64,000 bases of DNA from an uncultured Solirubrobacterales bacterium (GTDB lineage Bacteria > Actinomycetota > Thermoleophilia > Solirubrobacterales > JBBDJG01): positions 707,030 to 771,029 of the forward strand of contig CAWACB010000008.1 of the NCBI GenBank assembly GCA_963780475.1, written 5' to 3'. This document shows positions 1-64,000 of this stretch, in pieces. Made by a program: the position numbers and the translations under genes. The notes under the pieces are model-generated. The model was given only the letters and a program-made list of their open reading frames with translations. It was not told the origin of the DNA and searched no databases. Numbering within the stretch: the first letter of the stretch is position 1; each line of letters opens with the position of its first letter.

Positions 1-241
1 CAAGGACGCCAGCGGGATCCTGCGCTACCGCGTGTTCATCGACGGCCGCCAGGCGAAGACCGTCAAGGACAAGGACGGACCCGGCGGCAAGGACCCCAAG
101 CCGGACGCCCGCCTGCGGCTCGGCAACGGACGCCACCGCTGGTTCGTGCGGGCCTACGACTACGCCGGCAACCACCGCACGAGCAAGTCGTTCAAGCGCT
201 CCTCGAACGGTCGCAGCGGCGTGCTCTACGTCGGCGACTGA
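1..241 (+). CDS. C-terminal fragment of a secreted/surface protein (5' end outside window)
   Basis: The frame is open from the window edge (KDASGILRYRVFIDGRQAKTV...YDYAGNHRTSKSF...LYVGD) to TGA 239-241. No family recognised. Confidence 0.4.
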   Translation, partial: KDASGILRYRVFIDGRQAKTVKDKDGPGGKDPKPDARLRLGNGRHRWFVRAYDYAGNHRTSKSFKRSSNGRSGVLYVGD

Positions 242-256
242 CCGCCCCGGATTTAG

Positions 257-1453
257 TTACACGGGCGGCCGCGCCGCGTACAGCCGCGTCGGCTCGGCGA
301 TGCCCTTCAGCTGAACCTCCCCGATCGGCTCGAAGCTGAGCAACGGGCCGGCCGCCTCGCGGACCGTGTCGGTGACGAGCACCTCTCCGGCGTGGGCGCG
401 CGCGACGACGCGCGCCGCGAGGTTGACGTTGCGCCCGTAGTAGTCGCCGTCCCGGTACACCGTGCGGCCGAAGTGGATCCCGATCCGGGGACGCGAGCGC
501 TCCTCGAACTCACGCTGGAAGTCGATCGCCCAGTCCGTCAGCACCACCGGGTCCGGGCCGACGATCATCACCCCGTCGCCGATGTTCTTCACCACCCGCG
601 CTCCGCCGGGTAGCGAGTCCTCGACCGACACGATGAAGCTCTCCAGCAGGTCGAGCGCCTCGTGCTCGCCCTCCTCCTCGGTGAACCGCACGAAGCCCAC
701 CAGGTCGGCGAAGACGATCGCCATCCGCAGCACGCCCAACGGTTCCTCGCCGACCCCCTCGAGGTGCGACTCCATGTTCGCGACCACGTCCTGCTCGACC
801 GCCTCGGTGAGGAAGTTCCGGTGCAGGTAGAGCAGCAGCGGCGCGGTCAGCGGCAGAAGGTCGCCGATCAGCTCGGACATCTCCTGAGCCTGCTCCGGAC
901 CGGGCACCCCGTCGCGGATCAGCGGCTCGTGGACATAGATCCGGAACAGGCGCGCCTCGGCGTCCGCCGCCTGGCGCATCGACTGCCCGTAGACGTGGAT
1001 CGCCTGGAGGAACGCGACGAGCGGAAAGCCTGCGGCCAGCACGGCTGCCATGAAGTCGAGCGCCTCCAGGTCCGCGTCGTCCAGGTTCTCGAGGCGCCAG
1101 GCCGGGAAGCCCAGCCCGCGCCAGATGCGCTCGATCAGCGCCGGCTCGAGGCCGGTTCGATCGGCCGCATCCTCCAGCGAGAACGTGCGGCCCCGGCGAC
1201 TCGGGAACAGCTCCGCGACGTAGCCGAATGCGAGCCGGCCGTCCTCGCCTGCCCGGCGGATGTCGTCGAGCGTGTACCCGTCGCCGCGTAGGCGCGCCAC
1301 GATGCGGGCGTGGGCGGCCGCGGCATGCGTCCAGCGGCCGCGGTAGTCGGGGATCACCCCGGCCTCGCCCCATCTGCGCAGGGTGGCGGGCGTGACCCCC
1401 GCCTCGCGTGCAGCCTGGGCGAGGCTCAGCTCTGGTTCGCGGGCCGGAGGCAC
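257..1453 (-). CDS. MerR-type HTH fused to a class III adenylate/guanylate cyclase domain
   Basis: ORF 257..1777 trimmed to GTG 1453, because the upstream part is Arg-rich and overlaps the next gene. N-terminal MerR HTH (LSLAQAAREAGVTPATLRRWGEAGVIP). C-terminal cyclase core (MAIVFADLVGFVRFTEE, VKNIGDGVMIVG, IGIHFGRTVYRDGDYYGRNVNLAARV). Confidence 0.8.
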   Translation of the reverse strand: MPPAREPELSLAQAAREAGVTPATLRRWGEAGVIPDYRGRWTHAAAAHARIVARLRGDGYTLDDIRRAGEDGRLAFGYVAELFPSRRGRTFSLEDAADRTGLEPALIERIWRGLGFPAWRLENLDDADLEALDFMAAVLAAGFPLVAFLQAIHVYGQSMRQAADAEARLFRIYVHEPLIRDGVPGPEQAQEMSELIGDLLPLTAPLLLYLHRNFLTEAVEQDVVANMESHLEGVGEEPLGVLRMAIVFADLVGFVRFTEEEGEHEALDLLESFIVSVEDSLPGGARVVKNIGDGVMIVGPDPVVLTDWAIDFQREFEERSRPRIGIHFGRTVYRDGDYYGRNVNLAARVVARAHAGEVLVTDTVREAAGPLLSFEPIGEVQLKGIAEPTRLYAARPPV

Positions 1454-1502
1454 TGCGCGATTATGCCGAGCAAGCCGCAGCCGGCGGGTGGCCGGCGGTG
1501 GG

Positions 1503-1790
1503 CTAGGAGAGCCTGGCGATGACCTGCACTTCGTTGAGCGGCGTGTCGGGCTCGTCGAGATGCAGGAAGGCGCGCGCCGGGTGGATCGTGCGGCAATAGG
1601 GGCAGCGCAGGCGCGATGTGAGCGAGATCGAGCCGTTCGCCACCACCGGGACGTCGCACGTGGGGCAGGCGAGCGTGCCGCGCCCGAGCACCGGCTGCAC
1701 CGGCCGGGAGCGCTTGTACGGCACATACGGCTCGCGCGAGTCGAAGCGGTCCGGCCGGTCCCAGTCCATCGGGTCACGGAGCAGGCTCAT
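1503..1790 (-). CDS. small zinc-ribbon protein
   Basis: 95-aa ORF with two CxxC pairs (CPTC...CPYC). It is tightly packed between same-strand neighbours. No family recognised. Confidence 0.5.
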   Translation of the reverse strand: MSLLRDPMDWDRPDRFDSREPYVPYKRSRPVQPVLGRGTLACPTCDVPVVANGSISLTSRLRCPYCRTIHPARAFLHLDEPDTPLNEVQVIARLS

Positions 1791-3168: not shown

Positions 3169-3538
3169 CTACCGCCGCAGCCGGAAGCTGAACGAGCCCT
3201 TCTGGGTGTGCCCGTCCACCGCCTTGATCGTCCAGCGGGCCTTGTACTTGCCGGCCTTCAGGCCGCCCTTGAGCGACACGACCAGGCGCTTGACGTTGCG
3301 CGGGTCACGCCCGCCCTTGCCGGCCGAGACGACCTTTCCGCCGGGCCCGGTGACGCGAATCGAGCCGCTGCGGATCTGCTGGTTGAAGGTGACCTTGACC
3401 GAGCGGATCGAGGTCTTGGCCTTGCCGCCACGCTTGGGGCTCGTCGACGACACCTCCGTGTGGGCCAGGGCGGTGGTGGCCGGGATCGCCATCAGCGCCA
3501 GCGCGACGGCCAGCCAGGGGATGAAACGGATTTCGCAT
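3169..3538 (-). CDS. copC: CopC-domain copper-binding protein (start needs a 1-nt correction or a non-canonical start)
   Basis: The last 120 aa of ORF 3169..3951 give a signal peptide WLAVALALMAIPATTALA|HTEV and CopC-like sequence (KVTFNQQI, IRVTGPGGKVV, KYKARWTIKAVDGHTQKGSFSF). There is no in-frame ATG/GTG/TTG. ATG 3538-3536 follows a GAGAGAGAAGAGAG SD but is 1 nt out of frame. One extra A in the A3 run (3531-3533) would give MRKIRFIPWLAV... Confidence 0.7.
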
Positions 3539-3611: not shown

Positions 3612-4618
3612 CTAGATCTTGCCCGAGGCGCGTAGCCGAGGCGTTCGTCAGGACGGCGCTGAAGCTCACCTTCGAGCCCTTCGCCTTCTTGAGCGCCTTC
3701 TTGGCCTTGCTGCCGAGCTTGATCTTCAGCTGCGCCTTGCCGCTGGCGTCGAGCTTGCCGCTCGCCTTGCCGAGCGCCCCTGCCGTCAGGCCGGTCTTCT
3801 TGTCCGACTTCTTGCAGGTCGCCGTGACGGTGACGCTCTCGCCGGCGGGTCCGGTCACCTCGACCGTCGCGCCGCCCGAGGAGATCTTGCCGACCAGCTT
3901 GACCTTGAGGGTGGTCTGCATCTGCGCGATCGTCGCCGCCTGCGCGCTCACCGTCGCCTGAGTGGTAGTCAGGCTCGTCGTAAGCGACCCGATCTGGGTG
4001 TTGAGCGGGACGGTGAGCAGGTTTGCGTAGCCGCTGTTGAGCGCCGCCGTGCTGTTCTGAGTCTCGTCGGCAAGGCGTGTAGGTCCCGCCGAGGCCGACG
4101 CACTTGGCCATCAGGTCGCCCTCGGTGAGGTCGACTCCGGTAAGGGTCTGGACGACTGGAATCCAGTGAGCCGGATCGTCCTCGAGCCCGGCCGAGGTGG
4201 CCTGGAACGGCACGTAGTTGTAGAACGGGTCCGCTTCCTGCCAACTCGCGATCGCATCCGCGGTCTCGAGCGCCGCTACTCCGCGGCAGGTGGCGTGCGG
4301 CTGAGCAGCCGTGTCACCCTCCGCCAGCGACTGGGATTCGCGGGATGGTGGCCCGGTAGTCCCCTGGCAGCCGCGAGTAGTCGACCATGCCCTTGTCGTT
4401 CGCTCCGTTCGTCTCGCGCAGGACCATCGTGTAGCCGTGGTTGGTGACCACGTGACGAGTCTGGTTCTGCAACGTTCCGAACACGCCGGGCGTCGGATCG
4501 GCTGTCGATTCGCGGCGACGTCGGTGTAGACCGACCCGTGCCCGTGCGCCGAAGCCGGAACTGCGAGTGCCGCGACCGCCATTGCGGCGGCAAGCACGCC
4601 TTTGCGATTGAACCTCAT
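3612..4618 (-). pseudogene. secreted protein with predicted mature N-terminal His; frame interrupted at least 3 times
   Basis: Signal peptide MRFNRKGVLAAAMAVAALAVPASA|HGHGS. Clean sequence continues in other frames (VFGTLQNQTRHVVTNHGYTMVLRETNGANDKGMVDYS; ADAIASWQEADPFYNYVPFQATSAGLEDDPAHWIPVVQTL; TLKVKLVGKISSGGATVEVTGPAGESVTVTATCKK). ATGA overlap with the upstream gene at 4615-4618. TAG 3612-3614 is reached only if CCC 3622-3624 is read as CC. Confidence 0.55.
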
Positions 4619-5742
4619 CTGACGACTCCTTTATTGGAGGTGGACCGCTCCGCGCGGCCACCGGAAGGAATGAACACGGCCTGGTAGCGGCCGCGAGGAG
4701 GGTTCTCGAGACGGAACTTGAACCGGCCCTTCCGCGCGACGGTCTTCGCCGTCGAACGGATCTCGCCGGCTCGCAGCAACAGAACGCGGCCACGGACAGC
4801 CGGGCTGGTCGTCCCCCGGATGATCGCCCCGCCGGCCTTCAGATTCTTGATCTTGATGCGGGTCCTGGAGACCATCGTCACCGTCAGCGTCTGAGAGCGG
4901 ATCCCGCCGGCAGCTGCTCGGATGCGGGTCGTCTGCTTGAGACGAATCCGCGCCGAGTAGCTCCCGTTGGCGCTGGTCTTCACCCGCCGGGTGCTTTTGC
5001 CGCCACCGGTTGCAGTGAGATCGACCGTGACGCCGGCCCGAGCCGGCACCACGCTGCCGCGCACCCTGACGCGGCCAGTCCCGACGCGTTTTGACGGCGC
5101 CTTCAGACGCACCGCCGCCACGGCGTTACCGCCGCCGCCGCTGCCGCACGCCCCGACAACGAAGTCTGCTCCGTACTCGGTCCCCGCGGGGGTGACCCCG
5201 CCGGGCGCGCGGTCCACCCAGTGCGGCGCCGTGGTGACGCCGTCGTAGGTGAGCACGAAGGAGTTCCGGAGAACGCCTCCGGGCACCGCTCCAGTGCCGG
5301 CCGGCACGTCGATCGTGACCGTGCCCCCCGCGCCTGCCACGACTTCGCCGGCAGTCGATCCCGCGGAAACGAAGTTCGCGCCCTCGGTCCAGGTGCCGTA
5401 GTCGTACGCGACCGGTGCGTTGCGAAATGCCTGGGCGCGGACGTACCTGATCTGCCCACCCGTTTCAAACAGGAACGCGAAACCGGCCGCGACAGAGTCG
5501 TCGTGCGCCGGCTCCCATACCGCTTGCCGGATCTGTATGACCGCCTGCAGTCGGCCAGCCGCCTCCGAGTACCACGCCGACGTCACATCGGTGTTGATGT
5601 GATGGCCGTCGCCCGTGGCATCGGTGATCTGCGGTTGTCCGCCGCATGGGGCGGGTGGTGCGGCACCGGCGGATCCTGCGGTGACCAACATCGTCACCAG
5701 CACGACCGCGAATGCGGTTGCTGCGAGCCGTCTCCGGCCCAT
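4615..5742 (-). CDS. secreted hypothetical protein
   Basis: ORF 4615..5781 trimmed to MGRRRLAATAFAVVLVTMLVTAGSAGA (signal peptide). Non-repetitive 370-aa sequence with a C-terminal beta-rich basic region. No family recognised. Confidence 0.6.
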   Translation of the reverse strand: MGRRRLAATAFAVVLVTMLVTAGSAGAAPPAPCGGQPQITDATGDGHHINTDVTSAWYSEAAGRLQAVIQIRQAVWEPAHDDSVAAGFAFLFETGGQIRYVRAQAFRNAPVAYDYGTWTEGANFVSAGSTAGEVVAGAGGTVTIDVPAGTGAVPGGVLRNSFVLTYDGVTTAPHWVDRAPGGVTPAGTEYGADFVVGACGSGGGGNAVAAVRLKAPSKRVGTGRVRVRGSVVPARAGVTVDLTATGGGKSTRRVKTSANGSYSARIRLKQTTRIRAAAGGIRSQTLTVTMVSRTRIKIKNLKAGGAIIRGTTSPAVRGRVLLLRAGEIRSTAKTVARKGRFKFRLENPPRGRYQAVFIPSGGRAERSTSNKGVVR

Positions 5743-5817
5743 CTCGAAACCTCCTCGATTACCAAGTGGCCGCCGTCCCAAGGGGGACGTCAGCCGAACT
5801 TCAAGCTGGAAATCGAG

Positions 5818-6427
5818 CTAAGCCGGAGGCGCGCGGCCCGCCAGGTTCCACGCGAGCACGTCGAGGCGCCGTCCGGGAGGCGTTGCCAGGACGGTCCAGG
5901 ACCTGTACGGCGCCGATGTGGGGCGCCGTGGTGCCGCGGACGTGGCGGCGACGAACTCTATGGTCCGTCTTGCGAGCGAAGAGACAAAGGCGATCAGCGC
6001 GCCGACTGCCAGTGAGAGGAAGACGGCAGTCCAGCCGCCGTTGCCGAATACGCCGATCAGCCCACTCGCGTGACCGGGCGCAAACGCTCCCTCGAAGCCC
6101 TCCTGAAGGGTGTAGATCGCGAGCAGTGCGGCACTGGCGCCAAGCCACGAACGCGAGAATGAAGGTGCGCGGTCCTGCGGTCCTATGCCGCGGAACGCGC
6201 GCGCCAGCGAGAAGCCGAAGCGCACCAGCGCGATGCCGAGCAGCACGACGACCAGCGCCTCGAGTACCGGCAGGTACGAGTGGCCCTGCTCTGCGAGTGC
6301 CGCGCCCGCACCGTCGCCATAGGTGAGGACGTAGCGCAGCTCGTGGACTATGACCGCGCCTGCGCCAAGCAGCGCCACGGCACGTACCCTTCCCCAGGCT
6401 CCTCCCATGCGGGCCATAGTAGCCGGA
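5818..6427 (-). CDS. integral membrane protein (about 4 TM helices)
   Basis: C-terminal 203 aa of ORF 5818..7368, starting at MARMGGAWGRVRAVALLGAGAVIV. Several hydrophobic helices. The upstream part of the ORF overlaps the FAD oxidase out of frame. Confidence 0.55.
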
Positions 6428-6461
6428 AAATGCGAGCCTTGGCGCGCCTTTGCGGTGCGGC

Positions 6462-7946
6462 TCAGGGGTCGATCAGGACGCCCGGATTCATGATCCCGGC
6501 CGGATCGACGGCCGCCTTCGCGCCGGCCAGCGCTTGCGCGAAGCGATCGGGCCGCTGCCGGTCGTACCAGGGCCGGTGGTCGCGGCCAACCGCATGGTGG
6601 TGCGTGATCGTCCCGCCGGCGGCGATCAGGGCCTCCGATGCCGCCGCCTTGATCTCGTCCCACTGCGCGACCTCGGATCCGCGCTTCGCCGGCGCGACGA
6701 TCGTGAAATAAGGCGCCGGGCCGTCGGGATAGACGTGCGTGAATCGGCAGGACACGCGCGCCCCTTCGCCGCAGATCTCGCGTGCCGCGCCTTCGGCGGC
6801 CTCCATGACCGCAGCGTGGAATGCCGGGAAGCGGTCCCAGGTGATCGCCGTCTCGAAGGTGTCGCTCAGGATCCCCATGCGGACGAACAGGTCGCGGATG
6901 TACGGCGCGCGCAGGAAGGCCTGGCGCCACGCGCCGACCGGGTCGGTGCCGCCTCCCTCTTTGGCCGAGCCGCCCTCGCCCTTGTCCGCACGCGAGCGCA
7001 CCGTCCCGCCGTGGTCGCCCGCCAGCTCCAGCGCGCGGTCCATCGGGTGCGAGACCGGGTGGTCGGCCGACTCGAATCCGAGTATCAGCAGCGCCTCCGG
7101 GTGCTCCGAAGCGCTCGTCAGCTCGACCTCCTTGGCATCGAGCAGCCGGCAGTTGGACGGGTGCAGGCCGCTCTGCGACAGCGCCCGGACCGCCTCCGCG
7201 GCGGCCAGGAAGTCGTCGTATCCGACGCTCGCCGAGGAGCGGAACACCGGTCGCTCCTGCACACGCACCCACGCCTCGGTGATCACTCCGAGGATGCCCT
7301 CCGATCCGAGCAGCATCCGGTCCGGGCTCACCCCGGCGCCCGACCCCGGCAGCCGCCGGCTCTCCCACTCGCCGGCGGGCGTGATGGCCCGCACCGACTC
7401 GACCAGGTCATCGATGTGCGTATAGAGAGTCGCGAAGTGGCCGCCGGCGCGAGTGGCGATCCAGCCGCCGAGGGTCGCGAGCTCGAACGACTGCGGGAAG
7501 TGGCGCAGCGTGAGCCCCTGCTCGCGCAGCTGATCCTCGAGCACCGGTCCCGTCGCGCCGCCCTGGATCCGGGCCGCGCGCGAGCGGCGATCTACTTCGA
7601 GCACTCGGTCGAGCGCCGACAGGTCGAGCGTCACCGCGCCCGTGTAGCCGGAGCCGATCGCCGCCTCGACGCCGCCGACGACGCTCGTCCCGCCGCCGTA
7701 GGGGATCACCGCCGCGCCGCGCTCGCCACACCATTCGATCACCGCGGCGACGTCGCGCTCGTCGCGGGCGAAAGCGACCAGGTCGGGCGCGTGGTCGTAG
7801 CGGCCGCGGAAGGCGCGGACGACGTCGCGGTAGGCCTTGCCGTAGGCGTGCGATGCACGATCGTGCGGCTGGTCGGAGAACAGCTCGGCGAGCGCGGCCG
7901 GCGCCCGCAGGCGCGGAGCCGGAAGCTCCAGGTGCGCGACGTCCAC
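6462..7946 (-). CDS. FAD-linked oxidase, alkyl-dihydroxyacetone-phosphate synthase (AGPS)-like
   Basis: Intact 494-aa ORF. PCMH-type FAD-binding domain (AAVIPYGGGTSVVGG) and a C-terminal FAD-oxidase domain carrying GGTITHHHAVGRDH. This is the tri-His motif typical of AGPS, not the GEHGIG motif of GlcD/D-lactate dehydrogenases. Confidence 0.8.
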   Translation of the reverse strand: MDVAHLELPAPRLRAPAALAELFSDQPHDRASHAYGKAYRDVVRAFRGRYDHAPDLVAFARDERDVAAVIEWCGERGAAVIPYGGGTSVVGGVEAAIGSGYTGAVTLDLSALDRVLEVDRRSRAARIQGGATGPVLEDQLREQGLTLRHFPQSFELATLGGWIATRAGGHFATLYTHIDDLVESVRAITPAGEWESRRLPGSGAGVSPDRMLLGSEGILGVITEAWVRVQERPVFRSSASVGYDDFLAAAEAVRALSQSGLHPSNCRLLDAKEVELTSASEHPEALLILGFESADHPVSHPMDRALELAGDHGGTVRSRADKGEGGSAKEGGGTDPVGAWRQAFLRAPYIRDLFVRMGILSDTFETAITWDRFPAFHAAVMEAAEGAAREICGEGARVSCRFTHVYPDGPAPYFTIVAPAKRGSEVAQWDEIKAAASEALIAAGGTITHHHAVGRDHRPWYDRQRPDRFAQALAGAKAAVDPAGIMNPGVLIDP

Positions 7947-8106
7947 CGGGTCCTCGACGTCCGGCGCCCCGAAGCCGAGGTGTGCCCGGATGCCGGCCGC
8001 GGCCTGTTCGGCATCGCGCGCCGAGAGCTGCTGGTCCTCGTAACCCCAGCCCCAGACGCTGCGCCGCCGCGTCGCGGCCGACGTTTCTACCGCCGTGTCG
8101 AGCTCC

Positions 8107-10089
8107 CTACCAGTGCACGCCTCTCATCAGGTGCGCGAACGCGATCGCCTCTGTGCTCGGCTGCGCGTCCTTCTTCTTGTCGTCGCCCTGCGCCGCGGCG
8201 CTCTCGGGGAACAGCTTGAACGCCGTGTTCAGGATCGCGTCCATGGCCTTCGGCGCGGTCGCGTAGAGGACCTCGCCGAAGTTGCCCAGACGCGTCGCGA
8301 TCTTCTTCTGCCGGTAGATCATGGCCCGGGAGATCATGTCCGCGGCCTCCTCGGGAGTCGCGGTCGGGAAGGCGTCGTAGATCCCGGTCGGCGCGATCAT
8401 CGGCGTCTTCACCAGCGGCATGTAGATGGTCGTGATGTGCACGCCGTCCTCGACGATCTCCGATGCGATCGAGCGGGAGAACGCATCCAGCGCGCTCTTG
8501 CTCGCGACGTAGGCGGAGAAGCGCGGGGTGTTGGTCTGCGCGCCGATCGAGGACACGTTGATGATGTGGCCGAAGCCGCGGTCGCGCATCCCCGGCAGGA
8601 ACCCGAGGATCAGCTTCAGCGCCCCGAAGTAGTTCAGCTGCATCGTGCGCTGGTAGTCGTGGAAGCGGTCGTACGAGCGCTTCACGGAGCGCCGGATCGA
8701 GCGCCCGGCGTTGTTGACCAGGATGTCCACCCGCCCGTGCTGCGTGAGGATCTCATCGATCAGCCGGTCGATGTCCTCGAGCTCCGACAGGTCGGCTGGA
8801 TGGATGTGCGCCACCCCGCCCAGCTCCTCGATCTCCGACTTCACCTCCTCGAGCTTGTCGGCAGACCGCGCGACCAGCAGCACGATGCCGCCGGCCTCCC
8901 CGACCCGCAACGCGGCCGCGTGCCCGATGCCGCTCGAGGCGCCGGTGATGACGACCACCTTCCCCTCGACCGCGCCGCGCAGGCTGCGGTCCCGGAACAG
9001 GTCCGGGTCGAGGTTGCGCTCCCAGTAGTCCCACAGCCGGTCGGCGTATCCGTCGAGCGAGGGAACCGAGATGCCGGTTCCGTCGAGCGCGCGCTGCGTG
9101 TCGCGCGAGTCGTAGTCGCTCGGGTAGTCGATGTACGACAGCGTCTCGCGCGGGATCCCGAAGTCGCCCAGCACCTGATCGATGATCGACTTCACCGGCG
9201 GCAGCTGAGCGATCGCCTTGCGCGCCGACTTCGGCACGACGTTGGTCATCTGCCGGTCGATCCGCATCGCGAACTCGGGCGCATGCGCGGCACGCGCGAA
9301 CGTGTTCATCACCTGACCCGCCGACTTCGGCGAGGGGTCGGTGAGGTGGAACGCCTGTCCGTCGAGGCCGCCGGTGTGCGCGATGTGGTCCATCGCGGCC
9401 GCGACGAAGTCGACCGGCACGATGTTGATCGTCCCGCCCTCGAGGCCGACCACCGGTACCCACTGCGGCACCAGCGACCGCAGCCGCTGGATCACCTTGA
9501 AGAAGTAGTAGGGCCCGTCGATCTTGTCCATCTCGCCGGTCTGCGAGTGGCCCACGACGATGCCCGGCCGGTACACGCGCCACGGCACCTTGGTCCGCTC
9601 CCGCACGAGCTTCTCGGACTCGTACTTGGTGCGCGAGTAGGGGTCCTTGAGCTTCTGGCCCTCGTCGAACATGTCCTCGCGGAACAGGCCGCGGTAGCGA
9701 CCGGAGACCGCGATCGAAGAAGTGTGGTGAAAGTGCTTGGCGCCCAAGTCGTTCGCGAGCTCGACCGCGTGCGCCGTCCCATCGACGTTCATCCGCTGGT
9801 TCGTCTCGTCGTCCGCGGACATGTCATAGCTCGCCGCGAGGTGGAAGAAGTGGTCGACCCCTTCGAGCTTCGCGCGGTCCTCCTTCGAGACACCCAGCGC
9901 CGGAGCGCCGAGATCTCCCACTACCGGGACGACGCGGCTGTCTGCGGCCGCCCAGCGCGACTGCAGCTCCTCCAGCCGCGAGAGCGAGCCCTCGCGAACC
10001 AGCACGTAGATGGTTCCCTCCCGCTCGAGCAGGCGCTCGACCAGGTGCCTGCCGATGAAACCGGTGGCTCCAGTGACGAAGTACTTCAT
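8107..10089 (-). CDS. two-domain fatty acyl-CoA reductase (N-terminal FAR/thioester-reductase domain + C-terminal classical SDR), Rv3391/Marinobacter FAR type
   Basis: Intact 660-aa ORF. MKYFVTGATGFIGRHL Rossmann motif and YSRTKYESE catalytic motif in the N-domain. Second Rossmann VVVITGASSGIGHA with YVASKSAL in the C-domain. Confidence 0.9.
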   Translation of the reverse strand: MKYFVTGATGFIGRHLVERLLEREGTIYVLVREGSLSRLEELQSRWAAADSRVVPVVGDLGAPALGVSKEDRAKLEGVDHFFHLAASYDMSADDETNQRMNVDGTAHAVELANDLGAKHFHHTSSIAVSGRYRGLFREDMFDEGQKLKDPYSRTKYESEKLVRERTKVPWRVYRPGIVVGHSQTGEMDKIDGPYYFFKVIQRLRSLVPQWVPVVGLEGGTINIVPVDFVAAAMDHIAHTGGLDGQAFHLTDPSPKSAGQVMNTFARAAHAPEFAMRIDRQMTNVVPKSARKAIAQLPPVKSIIDQVLGDFGIPRETLSYIDYPSDYDSRDTQRALDGTGISVPSLDGYADRLWDYWERNLDPDLFRDRSLRGAVEGKVVVITGASSGIGHAAALRVGEAGGIVLLVARSADKLEEVKSEIEELGGVAHIHPADLSELEDIDRLIDEILTQHGRVDILVNNAGRSIRRSVKRSYDRFHDYQRTMQLNYFGALKLILGFLPGMRDRGFGHIINVSSIGAQTNTPRFSAYVASKSALDAFSRSIASEIVEDGVHITTIYMPLVKTPMIAPTGIYDAFPTATPEEAADMISRAMIYRQKKIATRLGNFGEVLYATAPKAMDAILNTAFKLFPESAAAQGDDKKKDAQPSTEAIAFAHLMRGVHW

Positions 10090-10155
10090 CGCTCCCCCAT
10101 CAACTCCCCTCGTAGTTCACCTCAAGGCCCGTCACCGGGCGCACGCCGCATTCTT

Positions 10156-12266: not shown

Positions 12267-12788
12267 CAGCTCTTCTTCGAGGAGCCGCTCGAGCGGCGGG
12301 CGGTCGAGCGCTTCGCGGTCGAGCGCTTCGCGGCGGTGCTCTTGCCGGCGGTCGAGCGCTTGCGCGGCGGTGCTCTTGCCGGCGGTCGAGCGCTTCGCGG
12401 TTGACGGCTTTGACGCGGTGCTCTTGCCGGCGGTCGAGCGCTTCGCGGCCGTGCGCTTCGCGGCCGGCTTGGCCTTCGCCGAGCGCTTCGGCTTGCCCTC
12501 CAGGCGGTCGACCCGGTCCTGGAGCGCATCGATCCGCGCGCGGAGGCGGCGAAGGTCCTCTCGGGTCGCGAATCGCAGATCGCCGAGGGCGCCACGGACT
12601 CGATCCGGCACCCCGGCGGCCGCCTCGGCTTGATGCTCGACGAGCTTGGTGGCGTCGTCGACCAGGTCCTGCGCGCGGCCCCGCGTCGAGCGCGCCGAGC
12701 CGCGCGTGCTCTCGACCGTCCGCTCGACGGCGCGCCGAACCGAGTCCGGCAGGGAGGGGGTCGGGGCCTTGGGCCGCTGGCGTGCCAA
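12266..12788 (-). pseudogene. PhaF/phasin-like coiled-coil protein with a Lys/Arg/Ala/Ser/Thr repeat tail (one 1-nt insertion)
   Basis: N-terminal part has a phasin-like motif (DLRFATREDLRRLRARIDALQDRVDRLEG), followed by KPKRSAKAKPAAKRTAAKRSTAGKSTA... repeats. Removing the extra G at 12362 restores ...AAKRSTAGKSTAAKRSTAKRSTARRSSGSSKKS-stop at 12266. As assembled the gene is fused in frame to the epimerase ORF. Confidence 0.6.
12306..12470. repeat. imperfect 33-nt tandem repeats (coding, 11-aa basic units)
   Basis: The unit gagcgcttcgcggcggtgctcttgccggcggtc occurs at 12321-12353 and again at 12354-12387 with one extra g (34 nt). Partial or variant copies flank these. Confidence 0.7.
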
Positions 12789-53504: not shown

Positions 53505-53879
53505 CTACACGCCCGCCGGGATCTCTCCGGATTCGTGTGCCTGAAGCACCTCGTCGCCGGCCTCGCCGGTTCGGATGCGAACCGCCTCCTCGACGGGAAT
53601 CACGAAGATCTTCCCGTCGCCGACTTCGCCCGTGCGAGCGTGTCTGAGGATCGTCTCTTTGACGAGGCCGACGTCCTTGTCGTCCACGACGATCTCCAGC
53701 TTCATCTTGGGCCGCAGGTGGATCACGAGCTCCGATCCTCGGTAGTGCTCAGTGATCCCCTTCTGCCGCCCAGAGCCGCGGTACTGACCCACCGAGAGGC
53801 TCGGGAAGCCCTTCTCCAACAGCTCCATCCGGATCGGCTCGAAGGCCTCGTGTCGGATGAATGCCTCGATTTTCTTCAT
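53505..53879 (-). CDS. glnK: P-II nitrogen regulatory protein
   Basis: Intact 124-aa ORF. MKKIEAFIR, T-loop GSGRQKGITEHYRG with the conserved Tyr, and GDGKIFVIPVEEAVRIRTGE. Immediately downstream of amt. Confidence 0.85.
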   Translation of the reverse strand: MKKIEAFIRHEAFEPIRMELLEKGFPSLSVGQYRGSGRQKGITEHYRGSELVIHLRPKMKLEIVVDDKDVGLVKETILRHARTGEVGDGKIFVIPVEEAVRIRTGEAGDEVLQAHESGEIPAGV

Positions 53880-55353
53880 GCGCTTCTCCTAACTCCCGGT
53901 CGTGGCTGGTCGTGCGGCCCCGCTCAAGGCGGGACGCACCGGCCGGGGTTCCGGCAGGCATCTGCATATCCCCCTCTTCCGGCGGGATGAACAGTTCCGG
54001 ATACCCATACATGCCGTGCTCGACGATGTCCAGGCCCGCCTCTTCCTCTTCTGCGGAGACGCGCAGCCCGATCGTCGCCTTGATCAGCCCGAACACGATC
54101 AGCGAGCTGACGAACGCGAACGAGAACGCGGCCCCGATGCCGAGCGCCTGGGCGCCGAGCTGGTGGAACGAGCCGCTGTACCAGAGGCCCGGATCGCCGA
54201 CGGCGTTCAGCTCCGCGTAGCGCGGGGACGTGAAGATGCCGCAGGAGAGCGTGCCCCAGATACCGGCCAGGCCGTGCGCCGACAGGGCGCCGACCGGGTC
54301 ATCGAGCACCTTCTCGATCGCCAGCACGCCGACCACCACGATCACACCTGCGACAGCGCCGATGATCGGGGCGGCCCAGAACTCCACGTAGCCGGAGGGC
54401 GCCGTGACGGCGACCAGGCCCGCGATTGCTCCGTTGCCGGCCATGCCGATGTCGATCGTCTTCCGCATGAAGTACATCGTCAGCAGTGCAGCCAGGACGC
54501 CCGCCGCGGCAGCGAGGTTCGTCACCACGACGATCTCGGCGAAGCGGTTGCCCATTGCGCCGAGCGTCGAGCCCGGGTTGAACCCGAACCAGCCCAGCCA
54601 CAGGATCAGGACGCCGAGGCCGACCAGCGGCATCGAGTGCCCCGGAATGGCGCGCGGCTTGCCGTCAGGCCCGTACTTGCCGATCCGCGGCCCGAGGAGC
54701 AGCAGCACCGCCAGGGCGCCGGTTGCTCCGATCAGGTGCACCACCGTCGATCCGGCGAAGTCCTGCATTCCGACGTTCACCTGCAGCCAGCCGCCACCGA
54801 AGATCCAGTGGCTGATCACCGGGTAGATGACCGACGCGAAGACGACCGCGTAGATCGCGTAGACCGCGAACTTGAGGCGCTCCAGCGTCGTTCCCCAGAC
54901 GATCGCCAGCGACACGGCGCAGAACACGAACTGGAAGAACATGAACGCCGCAGGGCTGATCGGGTACGCCTCGAGGAACGGGAACTGCTGTGCCGCCTCG
55001 GCGGGCACAGAGCTCACGTCCAGGAAGAACCCGGAGTCCCCGGCGATCGTGCCGGCGCCACCGAAAGCGAGCGCGAAGCCCACCGCCCAGTAGCAGAGGG
55101 CTGCGATCGAGAAGTTCGTCAGGATCTTCGCCACCCCCGTGCCGGCGTTCTTCGCACGCGAGAACCCGATCTCAAGGAAGGCGAAACCCGCCTGCATGAA
55201 CATCACGAGCACGGCGGCCACGATCACCCAGGTCGTGTTGAGGCTCGAGGTCACCTCCTCGATGGCGGGCGCGTCCTGACCCCACGCCGCGGCAGGCAGG
55301 ACCAGCGCGACCATCGCACCGGACACCGCTGCCCTCAAGAGACTTCTTCGCAT
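53876..55353 (-). CDS. amt: ammonium transporter (3' end uncertain)
   Basis: ORF 53749..55386 trimmed to MRRSLLRAAV (GAGGAGGAA SD upstream). FMQAGFAFLE, DFAGSTVVHL, WFGFNPGS and AHGLAGIWG. As assembled the tail overlaps glnK by about 130 nt. A frame change near the end would give a stop overlapping the glnK ATG (GCATGA). Confidence 0.8.
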
Positions 55354-57165: not shown

Positions 57166-58304
57166 CCAGGCCCGGCAGGCGGTCGGGAGCCGCTCGCGCC
57201 GTGGCGAGCTGGCGCTGCGCGCCGGGGTTCTCGCACAGCCCGCGGACCAGCTCCAGCTCCTGCGCGCACCCGAGCTTGCGAGCATGCGGGGCGCAGGCCG
57301 CGAGCAGCGGGTCCAGGTGCTCGGCCAACGGCACGCGCACCTCCCGCTGCACGTCGATCAGCTCCGCGGATGCACCGTCTCGCGCCGCCAGGAAGCGGTT
57401 CTCCTCCAGCACCTCGGGCGAGGACAGCTGCGCCGGCGGCAGGTAGGGCTCCTCGATCTCCAGCGGCCGCGGTGGCCTGCACCAGCGCCACGAGCGCGGC
57501 GGTGTCCTCGATCGTCCACTGCGAGTCCATGATCCGCACCTCGACGGTTCCGAACCGCGGCTGCAGGCGCACGTCCCACCACAGGAAGGTCGGCTCGGGG
57601 AAGGCGTCGCAGCGAATCAACAGGTCGACGGCGTTCACGTAGTCGCCGTAGTTGGCGAACGCGCGCGGGATGCCGACCCGCGGGAACGCCTGGAACAGCG
57701 GCGTCCGCGCCGAGGCCAGGCCCGTGTCGCGGCCCTGCCAGAAAGGCGAGTTGGCGGACAGCGCGAGGAACAGCGGCAGGTGCCCGCGCAGCCTGTTGGC
57801 CAGCTGCACCGCATCCTCCGGGTCCCGCACGCCGATGTGAACGTGCAGGCCGAACGTGGGCTCGCGGCGGGCCAGCTCGCGCATCGACCCATAGACCTCC
57901 TGGTAGCGCTCACCGGAGGAGACGACCGTCTGCTGCCAGACGGCGAACGGATGCGTCCCGGCGCTGGCGGCCGCGAGGCCGATCATCGACAGCTCGCCCT
58001 CGAGCTCCTCGCGCAGCCCGCGCAGCTCCTCGACGGCGCCGCCGACCGTCGCATGGACGCCGGTCGCGAGCTCGAGCGCGGAACGGTGCGTCTCGGCGGT
58101 CACCTGGCGGGCGAAGCCCGGGTCGAGCCGGCTCAGGACGGTGTCGATCAGCTGGGCGAGCGACCAGTCCTGCGGGTGCAGGAGCATCACCTCTTCCTCG
58201 ACGCCCACCGTGTAGGCGTCGCCGGAGGGATGCGGGGTCCAGGCCGACCAGTCGCCCGCGTCTACACCCGGGTCGGTGAACTGGTTGTTCAGGGTCCCGG
58301 GCAT
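57059..58304 (-). pseudogene. glutamate-cysteine ligase family 2 (YbdK-like carboxylate-amine ligase); 1 frame change near 57490
   Basis: VGVEEEVMLL, FGLHVHIGV, ALSANSPFWQGRDTGLAS and WWDVRLQPRFGTVEVRIMD. The C-terminus (EENRFLAARDGASAELIDV...) lies in the frame of ORF 57059..57412. The 3' end overlaps the convergent WS/DGAT gene by about 100 nt, so it is uncertain. Confidence 0.7.
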
Positions 58305-58383: not shown

Positions 58384-60696
58384 CTACGCCGGGACGAGCT
58401 CTTCCCGCAGCTGCTTCGCCGCCGCCACCATGTTCTTCAGAGACGGCTCGACCTCCTCGTAGCGGCGCGTCTTGAGGCCGCAGTCGGGGTCGACCCACAG
58501 CTGCTCGGGCTCGAGCACCTGCGCGGCAAGCCGCAGCAGCTCGACCATCTCCTCGGTCGAGGGGATCCGCGGCGAGTGGATGTCGTAGAGACCCGGGCCG
58601 ATCTCGTTCTCGTAGCCCGTGCGCTTCCAGTCCTCGAGCAGCTCCATCCTCGAGCGCGCCGCCTCGATCAGCAGGACGTCGGCGTCCATCTCCTGGATCT
58701 GCCGCATGATGTCGCCGAACTCCGAGTAACACATGTGCGTCTGGATCTGGGTCTCGTCCGCGACCGGGGAGACCGACAGGCGGAAGCAGTAGCACCGCCC
58801 AGTCCAGGTACTCGTCCCAGCGGTCGCGCCGCAGGGGCAGGCCCTCGCGGATCGCCGGCTCGTCGACCTGGATGATCTCGACGCCCGCGGCCTCGAGGTC
58901 CGCGGTCTCGTCGCGGATCGCGAGCGCCAGCTGCTCGCAGGTCTGCGAGCGCGGCTGATCGTCGCGCACGAACGACCACATGAGCATCGTCACCGGGCCG
59001 GTGAGCATGCCCTTCACGGGCCGGTCGCTCAGCGACTGCGCGAACTTCGCCCACTCGACCGTCATCGCGTTCGGACGCGAGACGTCCCCGAAGAGGATCG
59101 GCGGCCGGACATAGCGCGAGCCGTAGCTCTGCACCCACGCGTTCTCGGTGAACACGTAGCCATCCATCTGCTCCGCGAAGTACTGGACCATGTCGTTCCG
59201 CTCCGGCTCCCCGTGCACCAGCACGTCGAGGCCGATGTCCTCCTGGAGCCGGATCACGCGCTCGATCTCGCCGCGCATCAGCTCCAGGTACTTGGCCTCG
59301 TCGATGTCGCCGGCGCGCAGCTTCGAGCGGGCCTGGCGGATCTCGGCCGTCTGCGGGAACGAGCCGATCGTCGTGGTCGGGAACAGCGGCAGCCCAAGCT
59401 TCTGGTGCTGCGCCTGACGGCGCTCCGGGAACGGGCTCAGCCGGCGCGAGTCGGCCTCGGTGATCGCGTCCACGCGCTCGCGCACCCCCGGGTTGCGGGT
59501 ACGCGGCGAGCGCTCGCGGTCGTCGAGTGCCTTCCGGTTGGCTTCGAGCGTGTCCGAGCACCGCGTCCTCGCCCTCGTTGAGGGCGCGCGCGATGGTCGC
59601 CACCTCGTCGAGCTTCTGTACGGCGAAGGACATCCAGCTCAGCACCTCGTCGTCGAGCCGCGGCTCGTTGCGCTTGTCGATCGGGGAGTGCTGCAGCGAG
59701 CAGGAGGTCGAGACGACGACGTCGTCACCGGCCTGGCCACGCAGCTCCCTCACCAGCGCGATGCTGCGCGCCAGGTCGTTGATCCACACGTTGCGGCCGG
59801 AAACGACGCCCGCGAACAGCGTCTTGTCCTGCGGGAAGCCGTGGTCGCGGATCAGCTCGAGGTTGCGCTCACCGCGCACCAGGTCGAGGCCGATGCCGGC
59901 GACCGGCAGACGGGTCAGCACCGGGTACGCCTCGCCGACGTGGTCGAAGTAGGTGTTGATGAGGATCTTGGGCGCGCCCTCGACGGCGCCCAGGCGGCTG
60001 TAGGCGCGCTCGAGCGCCTCCAGCTCGGCCTGGGTGCGGTCCTCGACCAGGACGGGCTCGTCGATCTGGACCCACTCGGCGCCCAGCCTGCCGAGCTCCG
60101 CGAGCACCTCCGCGTAGACCTCGACGAGGCGTGTCGAGCAGCTCCAGCCGGTCGAACTCCTCGTCCGCGCACTTGCCCTGGAGCAGGCAGCGTGAGCGGG
60201 CCGATCAGGACCGGCTTGGTGTCGATGCCGAGCGCCTTGGCCTCCTCGTACTGCGTCGAACGGCTTGCGCGAGGACAGCCGGAACTCCATGCCGCGCCGC
60301 AGCTCGGGGACGATGTAGTGGTAGTTGCGTGTCGAACCACTTCGTCATCTCCATCGCGGTGACGTCGACGCCGCCGGCCTGGCGGCCGCGGGCCATCGCG
60401 AAGTAGGTGTCGAGGTCGACGCTTCCCGACGAGGCGTCCCACTCGTAGCGCTCGGGGACGGCGCCGACCAGCGCGATGGTGTCGAGCACCTGGTCGTAGA
60501 AGGAGAAGTCGTTGGACGGGATCAGGTCGATGCCCGCCTCGCGCTGCAGCTTCCAATTCGCTGCACGCAGGTCGCGGGCTGTTGCGAGCAGCTCGTCCTG
60601 CGAGCGCTCGCCGGACCAGTAAGACTCGGTGGCGACCTTCAGCTCACGCTGCGCGCCGATGCGCGGGAAACCCGACACGTTCGAAAGAGCGGGCAA
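58384..60696 (-). pseudogene. metE: cobalamin-independent methionine synthase (at least 5 frame changes)
   Basis: TTG start after a GGAGGA SD. N-terminus MPALSNVSGFPRIGAQRELKVATESYW. Middle part WVQIDEPVLVEDR..., [12 protein letters not shown]..., [18 protein letters not shown]-terminus [34 protein letters not shown]. Read from 4-5 ORF pieces. Confidence 0.85.
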
Positions 60697-60721: not shown

Positions 60722-61337
60722 TACGCGGCGGCAGGAAGGCGGACCGCCCGGAGTGCGTATGACGGCCGCCCGTAGACGTCGACGCGTCCACGCCACACTT
60801 AGCGGCGGACGGCGCATGGACGTCGGGACAGGCGCGTCGGTCAGCTCGGAGCGCGATACGAGCACGTGAAAGCACTCGCGGCACGGACCCGCGAGTCGGC
60901 ACTGAATCCGACGTCGCACGCCTGGAGGTACACTCGGAGCGACGGCTCGCATGAACACCATTCCGGAGACTCGCCAGCTGCGCCGACCTGCGGCCGCGAA
61001 GACGCGGTCGCGGCGAGCGCACCCTTCGGCGCCTCCACCGGTTACTCCTCGGGGCCACTTCTTCCTAAACCTTTGCGGCCTCCGCTCGATAAGAGATCCA
61101 TGCGCTCCCGCGGTTACTTTCGCTCCCTGCTCGGCAAGCTGTTCGGGGCTCCGGCTGCACCCTGCGCAACCACCCGATGCCGGAGCTGCGCGAGGTCGGC
61201 CACGAGTGGCTGGCCCGCACCCAGACTGAGGTACCGCCCGGCGGGGCTAAGCGTCGCGGACCGGAACGCCGCGCGGTGAGAGCTCGACCGGCGTCGCCGC
61301 CAGAGCGCGCATCCGCACGTCGCGCCACGAGAGGCCC

Positions 61338-62382
61338 TCACGGATCAGCGCCGGCAGGCCGAACGCGATCGGCGGTCGCCATCTCCACGCCCTGCAGGAT
61401 GATCCCGTAGCCGAGCGCGGCTGCGGTCGGGACGTCGTAGGCCCCGGTCAGCACCGTGATGACCGCGAGCTGGAAGACACCGATGTTCGACGGCGTCGCC
61501 GGCAGCACCGCGGTCACGTTGACCGCGAACAGCACCGCGGCCGCAGCGCCGATGCCGGCGCGGCTCTCGAGGCCCAGCGCCAGCAGCAGCGCGTAGGCGC
61601 CGAACAGCTGCAGCGCCCAGGCGGCCAGCTGCGACGAGGTCGCCCAGAACGCTCCGCGCGGTTGGCGGAATACCACCAGGCCCCGGCGCAGCCGCAGCAT
61701 CGCCGCGACCGCCTCGCGCACCAGGCGGCCGAGCGCTGCTCTGGCGCGATTCGAAGCGGCTGCCGGCCATCAGCGACGGCACGACCAGCACCGCCGCGGC
61801 CAGCGCGACCGGGATCAGGCTGACGAGGACGAGCGCGCCCTCGTGGCCGCGGAACACGTCGTTCGAGCCGAGCACGAGGAGGGCCAGCAACAGCAGCGCG
61901 AGCAGGTTCAACAGCGTCTGCGACACCAGCGTGCCGGCCACCACCGGCAACGTCTCGCGCATCCGGCCGATCCGCCGCGACACGACCAGCGCACGCGACG
62001 GCTCACCGAGGCGTGCCGGCAGCGTCGCGGACATCAGCACCCCGATCGCGGTGCCGCTCATGATCGTGCGGCGTTTCACCGGCCGGTCGGGCAGCGCCGC
62101 GCGGACGATGTAGTACCAGGACACCGCGCGCAGCACCATGGAAGTCGAGAACAGGCCGAGCGCGATCAGGACCCATGCCGGGCTCGAGTGCACGAGCGTC
62201 GTGAAGACGTTCTCGGCGCCGACGCGGCGCAGCGCGAGCAGGGCCAGGAGCGACGCCGAGCACGGCCGAGAGGCCGAGTGCGGCGCGGCGCGCGAACGCC
62301 AGGGCTTGCGCAGGTCGCGAGCGGCGCGCAGCGGCGCCGGCTCCAGCGACGGCAGCCGCCGGGCCGGACGGCGCGGCGACAT
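61338..62382 (-). pseudogene. flippase-like / lysyl-PG-synthase-TM-region (UPF0104) family membrane protein (1 frame change near 61730; start uncertain)
   Basis: AWVLIALGLFSTSMVLRAVSWYYIVRAAL...GTAIGVLMSATLPARLGEPSRALV... continues as ...FWATSSQLAAWALQLFGAYALLLALGL..AVLFAVNVTAVLPATPSNIGVFQLAV. Confidence 0.55.
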
Positions 62383-62429
62383 GTCGGCCGGCCGCGCGCC
62401 GACGCGCACGGTGGCGCGCTCGAGCGTGG

Positions 62430-63579
62430 TCTTGCGGCTGCGGCGCCTCGATCGCCTGGTGGTAGACCTCCTCGACCTGTGCGGCGACGCGCGGCCAGGC
62501 GAAGTCCTCGGCGCGCTCGCGCGCGGCGCTCGCCATCGCGGTCCGGCGCTCGGGCTCCAGCCACAGGGAGCGCAGCGCCTCGGCCAGCTCGAGCGGCCGG
62601 CCGTGCGGCACCAGCAGCCCCTCGCGGCCGTGCGTGACCACCTGGCGGTAGCCGGCGATGTCGGAGGCGACAACCGGCGTGCCCGCCGCGAAGGCCTCGG
62701 TCAAGACCATGCCGAAGCTCTCGCCGCCCAGTGAAGGTGCGCACAGGACGTCGGCCTCGTGCAGGTGGCGCCAGAGCTCCTCGTCGGTGACCCGGCCGTG
62801 AGTGTGGATGTGGTCCATCCCGCCCTCGACCTCGGCGAGCAGCGGCTCGACTCCCTCCGCCGGTGCACCGACGACGTCGAGGCGCACAGGGATGTGGCGG
62901 CGCAGGCCGGTGAAGGCGGACAGCAGCACGGGTAGGCCCTTGCGCTCCTCCTCGCGGCCGACGAACACGATGCGCAGCTCGGCCGAGTCCCGCTTGGGGC
63001 CGACCGGCGCCATGTCCAGGTCGACCCCGTTGGGCACCACCTGGTAGTGGCCGCCGAAGTACCGCTCGCCGGTCCAGCGGGCGGCGTCCGAGACGGCGAT
63101 CCGTGCGCTCAGCTTGTTGAAGACACGCCGTGCTCCCAGCCCGGTGGCGATCGCGTTCGGGAGCCACTTCGCGGAGTAGGCATGGAACGTGCCGACCACG
63201 GGCGCGCCGTCGAAGCAGGCGCGCGTCCCAGCCGACCAGCGGAGCGATCGGCTCGTGCACGTGGACAACGTCGAAGCGGCCCGCCCGCAGCTCGTTCCGC
63301 AGGCGCACGACCGACTCGACGTGGATTGCGAGGTTCGACGTTGCCCCGTTCATCGGCAGCGCGGCCGTCCGCCCGAGCGGGATCACGTATTCGGGCAGGG
63401 GACCGGCCTCCGGCCGGCGACGGTGGATTGCCCGGGTCAGGCGGTCGTCCGGGTCAACCGGAGAGAGCACTCGCACGTGATGCCCGTCGGACAGGTACTG
63501 GCGGGCTAGTGCGTCTACGTGGCGAGTAACTCCTCCTGGGAAAGTCCAGGAGTAAGGGAGATACGAGGGCGATTCGCAT
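62430..63579 (-). pseudogene. GT4-family glycosyltransferase (at least 3 frame changes; 3' end unresolved, possibly fused to the next gene)
   Basis: MRIALVSP / YSWTFPGGVTRHVDALARQYLSDGHHVRVLSP / ...HVHEPIAPL / VVGTFHAYS...RIVFVGREEERKGL...APSLGGESFGMVLTEAFAAGTPVVASDIAGY (the EX7E region). Confidence 0.65.
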
Positions 63580-63610
63580 CGGCGCGATGCTACCAGTGAG
63601 GGGTTCGGAG

Positions 63611-64000
63611 TCAGGGCCCACGAGAGCCCGTGGCCGGATGGCCTGCAGGGCTTTTCGGCGCTGCAGAAGCAAATCCTACGGCCAACGCCAGATATGTGGT
63701 GCCGATCAGCAGGATGATCGGCCCGGAGTCGTTGGTCAGCGCACCGGTCACGACAGCCGCGAAGGTGGCCCAGATGCCCGCCACCAGGCCGGGCTGGCCT
63801 GCGATCGGGGCCAGCAGCCGCTCCCGCCAGTAGACGCCCGCGGCGAGCGCCAGCACAGCGAGGATCACGAGCGGACCGATCGCACCGCGCCCCAGCGACG
63901 TGTAGCTCAGCTCGAAACGGCGCTGCGCGACCTCGCCCAGCTCTCGCAGGCCGCCGGCGCGCAGCACGGAGCGGGTGAAGTGCGAGTCGCCGCCGGTCGC
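63611..64000 (-). CDS. C-terminal part of a membrane protein (5' end outside window)
   Basis: The frame is open to the window edge. Hydrophobic helices (GPLVILAVLALAAGVYW, GLVAGIWATFAAVVTGAL, IILLIGTTYLALAVGFA). No family recognised. Confidence 0.45.
   Translation of the reverse strand, partial: ATGGDSHFTRSVLRAGGLRELGEVAQRRFELSYTSLGRGAIGPLVILAVLALAAGVYWRERLLAPIAGQPGLVAGIWATFAAVVTGALTNDSGPIILLIGTTYLALAVGFASAAPKSPAGHPATGSRGP

Follow-up and report, generated by a model that had tools for sequence, protein, structure and literature searches.

A stretch of 64,000 nt from the genome of an uncultured Solirubrobacterales bacterium (G000:C8:707030-771029, the whole of which is hereafter called the window) raises a simple question: do its many genes with a broken reading frame, metE and a peptidoglycan hydrolase among them, record the decay of a genome or the errors of its assembly? 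In an initial annotation, made from the letters of the window, about 27 of 70 genes were said to need changes of frame, and single-base indel errors were preferred to decay as their cause. Based on the comparison with related genomes and on contradictions within the assembly itself, we read the frame breaks as consensus errors left over in a noisy metagenome assembly, most likely one built from long reads, and not as gene decay (a reading to which we give a probability of about 0.95), and we consider the genes of the organism to be almost certainly intact in reality. The preference for error over decay is upheld by the absence of nonsense codons, the bias towards insertions, the presence of breaks in essential genes, the intact state of the relatives, a near-identical paralogue and the conflict between overlapping contig ends.

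The genome is 3.2 Mb long, with a G+C content of 70%, and its marker completeness is 74.1% despite its being assembled in only 9 contigs. The names that homologues of metE bear point to a Solirubrobacterales-like actinobacterium. The window is colinear with regions of 62-68 kb in three genomes of the same family (G012, G009 and G005) and partially colinear with two further ones (G006 and G003), the nucleotide identity with these syntenic relatives being about 77%. A single genome of this genus was available (G001, 52% complete), and a search of it with the first 20 kb of the window, to which the comparison was confined, gave no match.

Frame breaks in the window and in related genomes

Frame changes were located with a Viterbi model of codon usage that includes states for frameshifts and was trained on the genome under study, and by tracking the reading phase along MAFFT alignments of the window with its relatives (36 tiles, 47 kb). 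The model finds 66 frame events in the window (1.03 per kb), compared with 0.27-0.52 per kb in the syntenic regions of the five relatives, where they fall mostly at overlapping gene junctions. Such junctions are scored as frameshifts in the window also (e.g. at 8124, 18177, 49006, 51997 and 53889), and the counts of the model are therefore used only relative to the baseline of the relatives. When the window is phase-tracked against any one of the relatives, persistent frame changes come at a rate of 0.96-1.40 per aligned kb, and at 0.08-0.39 when G009, G006 and G003 are compared with each other. The breaks lie far above the density of the related genomes, and the interrupted proteins continue in the adjacent frame after a shift of 1-2 nt. 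When the methods are consolidated, 49 solid and 14 candidate single-base events are obtained, distributed over about 27-30 of about 65 genes, which agrees well with the number first proposed; the interruptions that had been named (in metE, the peptidoglycan hydrolase, the ThiY-like binding protein, the ABC ATPase, PucR, the acyl-CoA dehydrogenase (ACAD), the FadB-like genes, Sir2, SPT, VWA, cax and GT4) are likewise recovered. After correction of the frame, the translations regain end-to-end Pfam matches (metE, ACAD, Sir2, NMT1 and others).

The events are directional. In the 36 tiles, the single-nucleotide changes private to the window amount to 34 insertions and 17 deletions, with 3 insertions and 4 deletions private to the equally outlying G006, and 1 and 2 to G003. 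By phase tracking against G009, 35 events are due to an extra base and 9 to a missing base in the window (about 4:1).

Some limits of the detection methods bear on how the list of breaks is to be read. The Viterbi model missed the event at 12362, where the shifted frame reads on into the next gene. Chaining of tblastn high-scoring segment pairs, with the open reading frames (ORFs) of the relatives as queries against the window, returned 32 sites only, with gene junctions mixed in, and was replaced by the phase tracking. The reverse search (ORFs of the window against the relatives) partly finds the events of the window again, as apparent -1 shifts in all relatives, and is no clean control. Additionally, an unfiltered scan for stop codons was swamped by natural gene ends and antisense ORFs, and a filtered version was used.

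Nonsense codons, substitutions and sequence context

No in-frame stop is found in the window at 5701 well-aligned codons compared with G009, and none has to be bridged along the 19,184-codon coding path of the Viterbi model, so that the earlier remark that in-frame nonsense codons are absent holds in both cases. With the codon usage of the window, 2.5% of random substitutions give a stop; had decay produced the 49-63 indels neutrally, with each accompanied by 10 substitutions, 12-16 nonsense codons would be expected, and the probability of observing none is below 1e-5 (and still no more than 0.024 if each indel came with 3 substitutions). In columns that are otherwise invariant, private substitutions reach 8.2% in bins with events and 8.1% in bins without them (Spearman rho 0.19, P = 0.18, a test of low power). 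The defect appears to be indel-specific, not a general drop in quality, since the error-dense bins show no excess of private substitutions.

The initial annotation had also proposed that the errors are of the homopolymer type, and this part does not stand. At 29 well-placed insertions, tabulated against their homopolymer context, the inserted base ends up in a run of length 1 in 19 cases, 2 in 5 and 3 in 5, which is indistinguishable from the null of 0.58/0.31/0.09 obtained for a random base of the window; 19 of the 29 extra bases match neither neighbour (compared with 58% under the null). All six insertions in metE are of this non-homopolymer kind (e.g. acacGcaac and tcgaCgcag).

As a side observation on these 29 sites, the extra base falls inside a CTGC/GCAG 4-mer in 8 cases (2 expected), in many of them as C[T]GC; the corresponding figures are 3 and 0.5 expected in G012, and there are no such cases in G005. 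This excess is not significant after correction for the 136 canonical 4-mers, and may reflect a slight systematic preference of the consensus caller for this context.

Essential genes, near-identical copies and contig ends

Breaks of the same kind occur in single-copy genes that the organism can hardly lack. In this genome a single extra base outside any homopolymer, near codon 306, splits rpoB (in four relatives it is one open frame of 1186-1205 aa), ileS lies in two frames and dnaB in at least four pieces, both being intact in relatives; gyrA and rpoC are intact. The other few-contig genomes of the family carry the same error signature: G005 has 22 private single-base insertions in its syntenic region, in conserved context, and G012 has 9 (1-2 in G009, G006 and G003), while rpoC is split in G009 and G012, and dnaB in G006.

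Close external copies of interrupted genes are intact. The ENA contig k141_4540482 (L041, which bears a MEGAHIT-style name of the kind given to short-read contigs) encodes an intact metE of 767 aa, 94% identical to the corrected protein, and a second metE homologue (P0001) is also 94% identical. At 90.4% nucleotide identity, the metE of the window and that of L041 differ in length only by six 1-nt extra bases, exactly those listed in Table 1, and by one 3-nt indel; comparison of the junctions with orthologues, named in the initial annotation as a check, comes out on the side of error. Compared with the same contig, the window has four bases too many and one too few in the LPG-synthase-like gene and one extra base in GCS2, and the WS_DGAT gene, which is intact in the window, differs by 3-nt indels only. 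L041 comes from a different strain, so the metE comparison is supportive, not decisive.

A comparison internal to the assembly is offered by the mlaE pair (window 45752-47423), of which a copy with 98-99% identity lies at G000:C9:265615-267286. This copy lacks the extra bases of the window at 46271, 46509 and 46566 and carries three extra bases of its own, so that 6 single-base insertions, 3 in either copy, and 15 mismatches separate the two. Identity falls sharply outside the two genes, and relatives hold several copies at 80-91%; the duplicate suggests a recent duplication or gene conversion in an operon family of the mce/mla type.

The ends of several contigs overlap and contradict each other. 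C6:1-16988 forms a dovetail with C7:1-16966 in reverse complement, in which the identity is 89.5% and persistent frame changes number 112; the secA copy of C6 is intact and that of C7 lies in three frames. Further overlaps join the ends of C7 (30161-33561) and C9 (1-3384) at 93%, and of C4 (483-2236) and C8 (2-1727) at 86%. Mismatches in the C6/C7 overlap amount to 8.3, 6.6 and 14.6% at codon positions 1, 2 and 3, with a coding fraction of 78-92%. Pure raw-read sequence was rejected as an account of this overlap, since the codon-position profile and the coding fraction point to noise plus some real divergence. Merging of the contigs probably failed because of noise, and C7, 33.6 kb long and with 1.67 model events in each kb, has the look of a bridging contig that was poorly corrected. 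The implied contig order is reverse-complemented C6, then C7, then C9, with C4 and C8 placed head to head.

Distribution of the events along the window and the genome

The initial annotation had pointed to an uneven distribution of the breaks, with the fatty acyl-CoA reductase (FAR), KorA, AGPS and GlnA genes left intact. This is confirmed by the index of dispersion of the events in the window (1.47, P ~0.014) and by a gap of about 8 kb, which has a probability of about 0.013 under uniform placement of 63 events. The events crowd together at 14-23.2, 33.2-35.6 and 58.7-63.3 kb of the window. The same patchiness is seen throughout the genome, where the Viterbi model finds 2750 events (0.86 per kb, against a baseline of about 0.3), with contigs ranging from 0.59 to 1.67 per kb and 20-kb bins from 4 (the baseline) to 70 events (mean 16.8, variance 99). 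It is this genome-wide patchiness of the errors that accounts for the intact FAR, AGPS, KorA and GlnA in the window.

The intact cluster at 6462-12270 comprises genes for a fatty acyl-CoA reductase-like protein, an AGPS-like flavoprotein, an acyltransferase and an epimerase, and is kept in all relatives. Judging by the appearance of the sequences, the cluster resembles a pathway for ether lipids or fatty alcohols, here in an actinobacterium.

Origin of the frame breaks

Several points weigh against reading the breaks as consensus errors. The evidence is entirely comparative or internal to the assembly; the comparison genomes, at 72-90% DNA identity, show that the orthologues are intact and not that the genes of this strain are; the error-dense bins are without an excess of private substitutions; and there is no homopolymer enrichment, unlike the classic Nanopore signature of homopolymer deletions (PMC9262707). 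The initial annotation had held that junctions free of such enrichment would speak against error. That is how the junctions turned out, and yet decay is not rescued, since non-homopolymer stochastic insertions are also a known consensus error. A related idea, that the patches are raw-read gap fills of generally low quality, was dropped because private substitutions are not raised in the dense bins.

Read as consensus errors, most of the breaks are single extra bases added spuriously, at random and outside homopolymers, and they gather in patches a few kb long (2-5 errors per kb) with clean stretches in between. The patches may track local read depth or local polishing success, given that they are about as long as a long read, and the insertion-dominated, context-free pattern could be stochastic insertion noise that survived a low-depth consensus. 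Indel errors throughout the genome also explain the low marker completeness (74%) despite the 9 contigs.

The opposite explanation, genuine mass pseudogenisation (i.e. reductive evolution with real loss of methionine synthesis, beta-oxidation, cell-wall hydrolases and other functions), would fit the many non-essential genes struck, some of them repeatedly (metE six times, the hydrolase five, PucR four), as well as the location of the breaks outside the homopolymers in which the best-known Nanopore consensus errors concentrate. We nevertheless consider it highly improbable: it predicts 12-16 nonsense codons where there are none, and an excess of private substitutions in the broken regions that the low-power comparison does not show; insertions exceed deletions by about 4:1, opposite to the deletional bias of bacterial pseudogenes. 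Moreover, the essential rpoB, ileS and dnaB are broken too, the corrected proteins are all full length and family-typical, each of the two 98-99% identical paralogues has private insertions (with an indel to substitution ratio of 6:15), and the overlapping contig ends conflict with each other. A variant in which the extra bases are real would call for insertion-biased mutation in patches of the chromosome (possibly by error-prone repair or template-independent nucleotide addition) in a lineage just beginning the mass inactivation of its genes, essential ones included, with the sampled DNA derived from dead or dying cells or being relic DNA, and is barely credible. Still less credence can be given to decoding in vivo, whereby programmed ribosomal frameshifting or transcriptional slippage would restore the frame. 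Nothing specific favours it, beyond the fact that each protein continues cleanly in the next frame; slippery heptamers and homopolymer tracts are missing (19 of 29 extra bases stand alone), the sites recur about once in every kb and as many as six fall in a single gene, no relative conserves them, and they differ between near-identical paralogues.

Two other explanations accept that the breaks are mostly artefacts, and deserve more attention. It is possible, although we would not expect it, that at least one real pseudogene hides among the breaks, the candidates being the MMPL/RND-like gene and one of the accessory genes of the copper island described below, given that neither the six events at 40885-44712 nor the two at 4075 and 4334 are backed by several relatives, and that a few per cent of pseudogenes is usual in bacterial genomes. 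No single break stands out, however, all being of the same +1 type with the same absence of nonsense codons, and G010 aligns in one frame to the corrected protein of the copper island. The collapse of strains into a haplotype mosaic, with indels arising where strain alignments disagree, could replace low depth as the source of the artefact. The patchiness of the errors would be compatible with it, and in the C6/C7 overlap the mismatches at codon position 3 (14.6%) are twice those at position 2 (6.6%), which hints at co-assembled populations. It is an unlikely source all the same, since it should produce an excess of private substitutions, and none is seen in the error-dense bins of the window; insertions at random, non-repeat positions are also no obvious outcome of it. 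Consensus errors in a noisy assembly remain, in our opinion, the best explanation.

The interrupted genes

The events are listed gene by gene in Table 1, together with the Pfam matches of the corrected proteins.

Table 1. Frame events and clean stretches in the window; relatives are those whose alignment supports the event, and Pfam matches are given as positions over model length where available.
Feature	Coordinates	Strand	Frame events and support	Pfam match after correction
copC-like gene	3169..3538	-	One putative extra A in the A3 run 3531-3533, between the ATG (3538-3536) and the signal-peptide/CopC frame	
Copper-island gene upstream of copC	3620..4451	-	Viterbi frame changes ~4334 and 4075; possible extra G in GGG 3622-3624	
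Basic-repeat (PhaF/HBHA-like) protein	12290..12788	-	One extra base at 12362	
SLT + M23 peptidoglycan hydrolase	13844..16254	+	Five breaks: 14093, 14151, 15214, 15707, 15730; all 5 relatives agree	SLT, SLT_2, Peptidase_M23
Hypothetical gene	16271..17112	+	Two breaks: 16546 (3 relatives), ~17025	
Sir2 deacetylase and enoyl-CoA hydratase (ECH)/FadB-like gene	17413..19286	-	Sir2 17508, 17546; ECH 18692, 18912; 4 relatives each	SIR2 1-180/180; ECH_1 5-250/251
3-hydroxyacyl-CoA dehydrogenase (3HCDH, FadB-like)	19291..20170	-	One extra T at 19609 (gcagcgTgatcgg); 5 relatives	3HCDH_N 3-179/180
ACAD	20854..22031	-	Extra bases 21667, 21845; 5 relatives	All three ACAD domains, full length
Two small genes	within 22180..24178	+	Extra base 22308; missing bases 22490, 22886	
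cax Ca2+/cation antiporter	within 22180..24178	-	Extra base 23198	Na_Ca_ex
VWA-domain gene and ABC ATPase	31946..34145	+	VWA 33269, 33330; ATPase 33436, 33465, 33586; 4 relatives	
ABC permease and NMT1/ThiY-like binding protein	34169..35930	+	34907/34963, 35235, 35379, 35538; last three against 5 relatives; four breaks counted for the binding protein	BPD_transp_1; NMT1 1-216/216
SPT-like aminotransferase	37449..38750	+	Extra base 38476 (5 relatives: ggcgActgagg against ggcg-ccgagg); candidate second break ~38708	
Small membrane protein	39834..40173	-	Extra base ~39937	
MMPL/RND-like transporter and downstream genes	40885..44712	-	Six candidates: 41275, 41556, 42080, 42468, 43201, 43497; Viterbi only	
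MlaE-like permease	45753..46537	-	Extra T 46271, extra G 46509-46512; 4 relatives; further extra T 46566 just upstream	
PucR-family regulator	50831..51990	-	Extra bases 50899, 51362, 51530, 51796; 4 relatives	HTH_30 1-59/59
PII/AmtB pair	53505..55314	-	One break ~53932, 3 relatives; Viterbi event 53889 is a gene junction	
GCS2 carboxylate-amine ligase	57358..58304	-	Extra base ~57468 (also against L041); candidate 57382	
metE	58384..60678	-	Six single extra bases: 58793, ~59552-59555, 60131, 60188, 60255, 60328	Meth_synt_1 5-311/313; Meth_synt_2 1-323/324
LPG-synthase-TM-like gene and GT4 glycosyltransferase	61247..63470	-	61372, ~61734-61748, 62252, ~62421-62435, 63216	LPG_synthase_TM; Glycos_transf_1/4
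Longest clean stretch (~8 kb)	4452..12361	.	No event by any method; intact FAR and AGPS	
Other clean stretches	23199-29588; 46567-50898; 51997-53365		KorAB in the second, GlnA in the third	

The three breaks of the ABC ATPase cluster in about 150 nt. The MMPL/RND region is the weakest entry of the list, where some candidates may be gene junctions; one break (41201-41282) was also found there by tblastn against G005 and G006.

The initial annotation had pinned three breaks to a single base, two of them in the copper island. In copC, the direction of the repair proposed for the A run at 3531-3533 is wrong: reading A3 as A4 leads to early stops, and reading it as A2 restores an ATG-initiated precursor, MRIRFIPWLAVALALMAIPATTALAHTEV...FRLRR-stop, the CopC part of which has 53-61% identity to the loci in G010 and G007. 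This putative repair would mean that, here again, the window has one base too many. In the gene upstream of copC, reading the GGG of the minus strand at 3622-3624 as GG (CC for CCC on the plus strand) does yield ...ATRLGKI-stop followed by a 13-bp hairpin, as had been proposed. Residues 1-269 of the corrected protein align in a single frame to G010:C2; the C-terminus is too divergent in the G010 and G007 homologues to be compared, and the repair is plausible but putative. The copper island itself (copC and neighbouring secreted or membrane proteins, window ~1800-5600) is absent at the syntenic position in the five main relatives; G010 (C2:219.7-222.8 kb) and G007 (C24) have it at other positions, the G007 copy having frame breaks of its own and an in-frame stop in copC.

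The third case, an extra base at 12362, is confirmed by the other copies of the repeat in which it lies: one copy of the 30-nt repeat reads gcgCaagcgctc and the others gcgaagcgctc, and phase tracking gives a +1 phase at this position against 2 relatives. Without the extra base (by hand translation), the AKRSTAGKST periodicity is recovered and the protein ends in ...KKS-stop, with the restored stop overlapping the start of the epimerase as TGATG. The tandem repeat (12290-12460) consists of AKRSTAGKST units that form a basic, PhaF/HBHA-like C-terminal tail directly upstream of the epimerase.

Elsewhere in the genome, about 5 kb of C1 (G000:C1:58474-63410) is self-similar at 87-90% at several offsets of a few hundred bases, which indicates a long tandem-repeat array.

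Implications and comparison with known systems

The frame breaks are best treated as an assembly artefact and not as a real biological feature. The gene calls, pathways and claims of missing functions derived from this genome (methionine auxotrophy, loss of beta-oxidation, loss of cell-wall hydrolases) are unreliable until it is polished, and about one third of its predicted proteins would be truncated or chimeric, polluting protein databases and lowering completeness estimates. The warning extends to the long-contig relatives, several sister metagenome-assembled genomes (MAGs) being affected. Additionally, a homopolymer test alone would have wrongly spoken against error; error and decay are told apart more reliably by the lack of nonsense codons, the excess of insertions, the breaks in essential genes and the replicates within the assembly.

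In some bacteria, interrupted frames are rescued by slippage at poly-A tracts (in endosymbionts) or by programmed frameshifting (in prfB, dnaX and insertion-sequence (IS) elements). As in these systems, the proteins of the window continue in the adjacent frame; however, such mechanisms need slippery or homopolymeric motifs at conserved sites, whereas the sites of the window have neither and are private to the assembly. Genuine genome-wide pseudogenisation is known from Mycobacterium leprae and from recent endosymbionts such as Sodalis, with which the window shares the large proportion of interrupted genes, several of them more than once. Decay of that type comes with nonsense codons, larger deletions, relaxed substitution, a deletional bias (reportedly described for bacterial pseudogenes by Mira, Ochman and Moran in 2001) and the sparing of essential genes, and none of these is seen in this genome.

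The resemblance is closest to the errors of long-read assemblies, whose indel and frameshift consensus errors Watson and Warr are said to have pointed out in 2019. Such errors have been described in long-read assemblies and MAGs (10.1101/2021.08.23.457338, the proovframe preprint; Kastor, PMC12007338), where frameshifts lower the completeness of MAGs, more so at low coverage (PMC8103633), and the Nanopore signature consists of homopolymer indels, polishing being required for bins whose coverage is below about 40x (PMC9262707). The window departs from this published Nanopore signature in that extra bases dominate by about 4:1 and lie at non-homopolymer positions. In the remaining aspects, it behaves as assemblies from Nanopore or PacBio continuous long reads (CLR) do: single-base indels fragment conserved genes, essential ones included, completeness is low (74%) at high contiguity (9 contigs), the effect varies along the genome, and the orthologues are intact.

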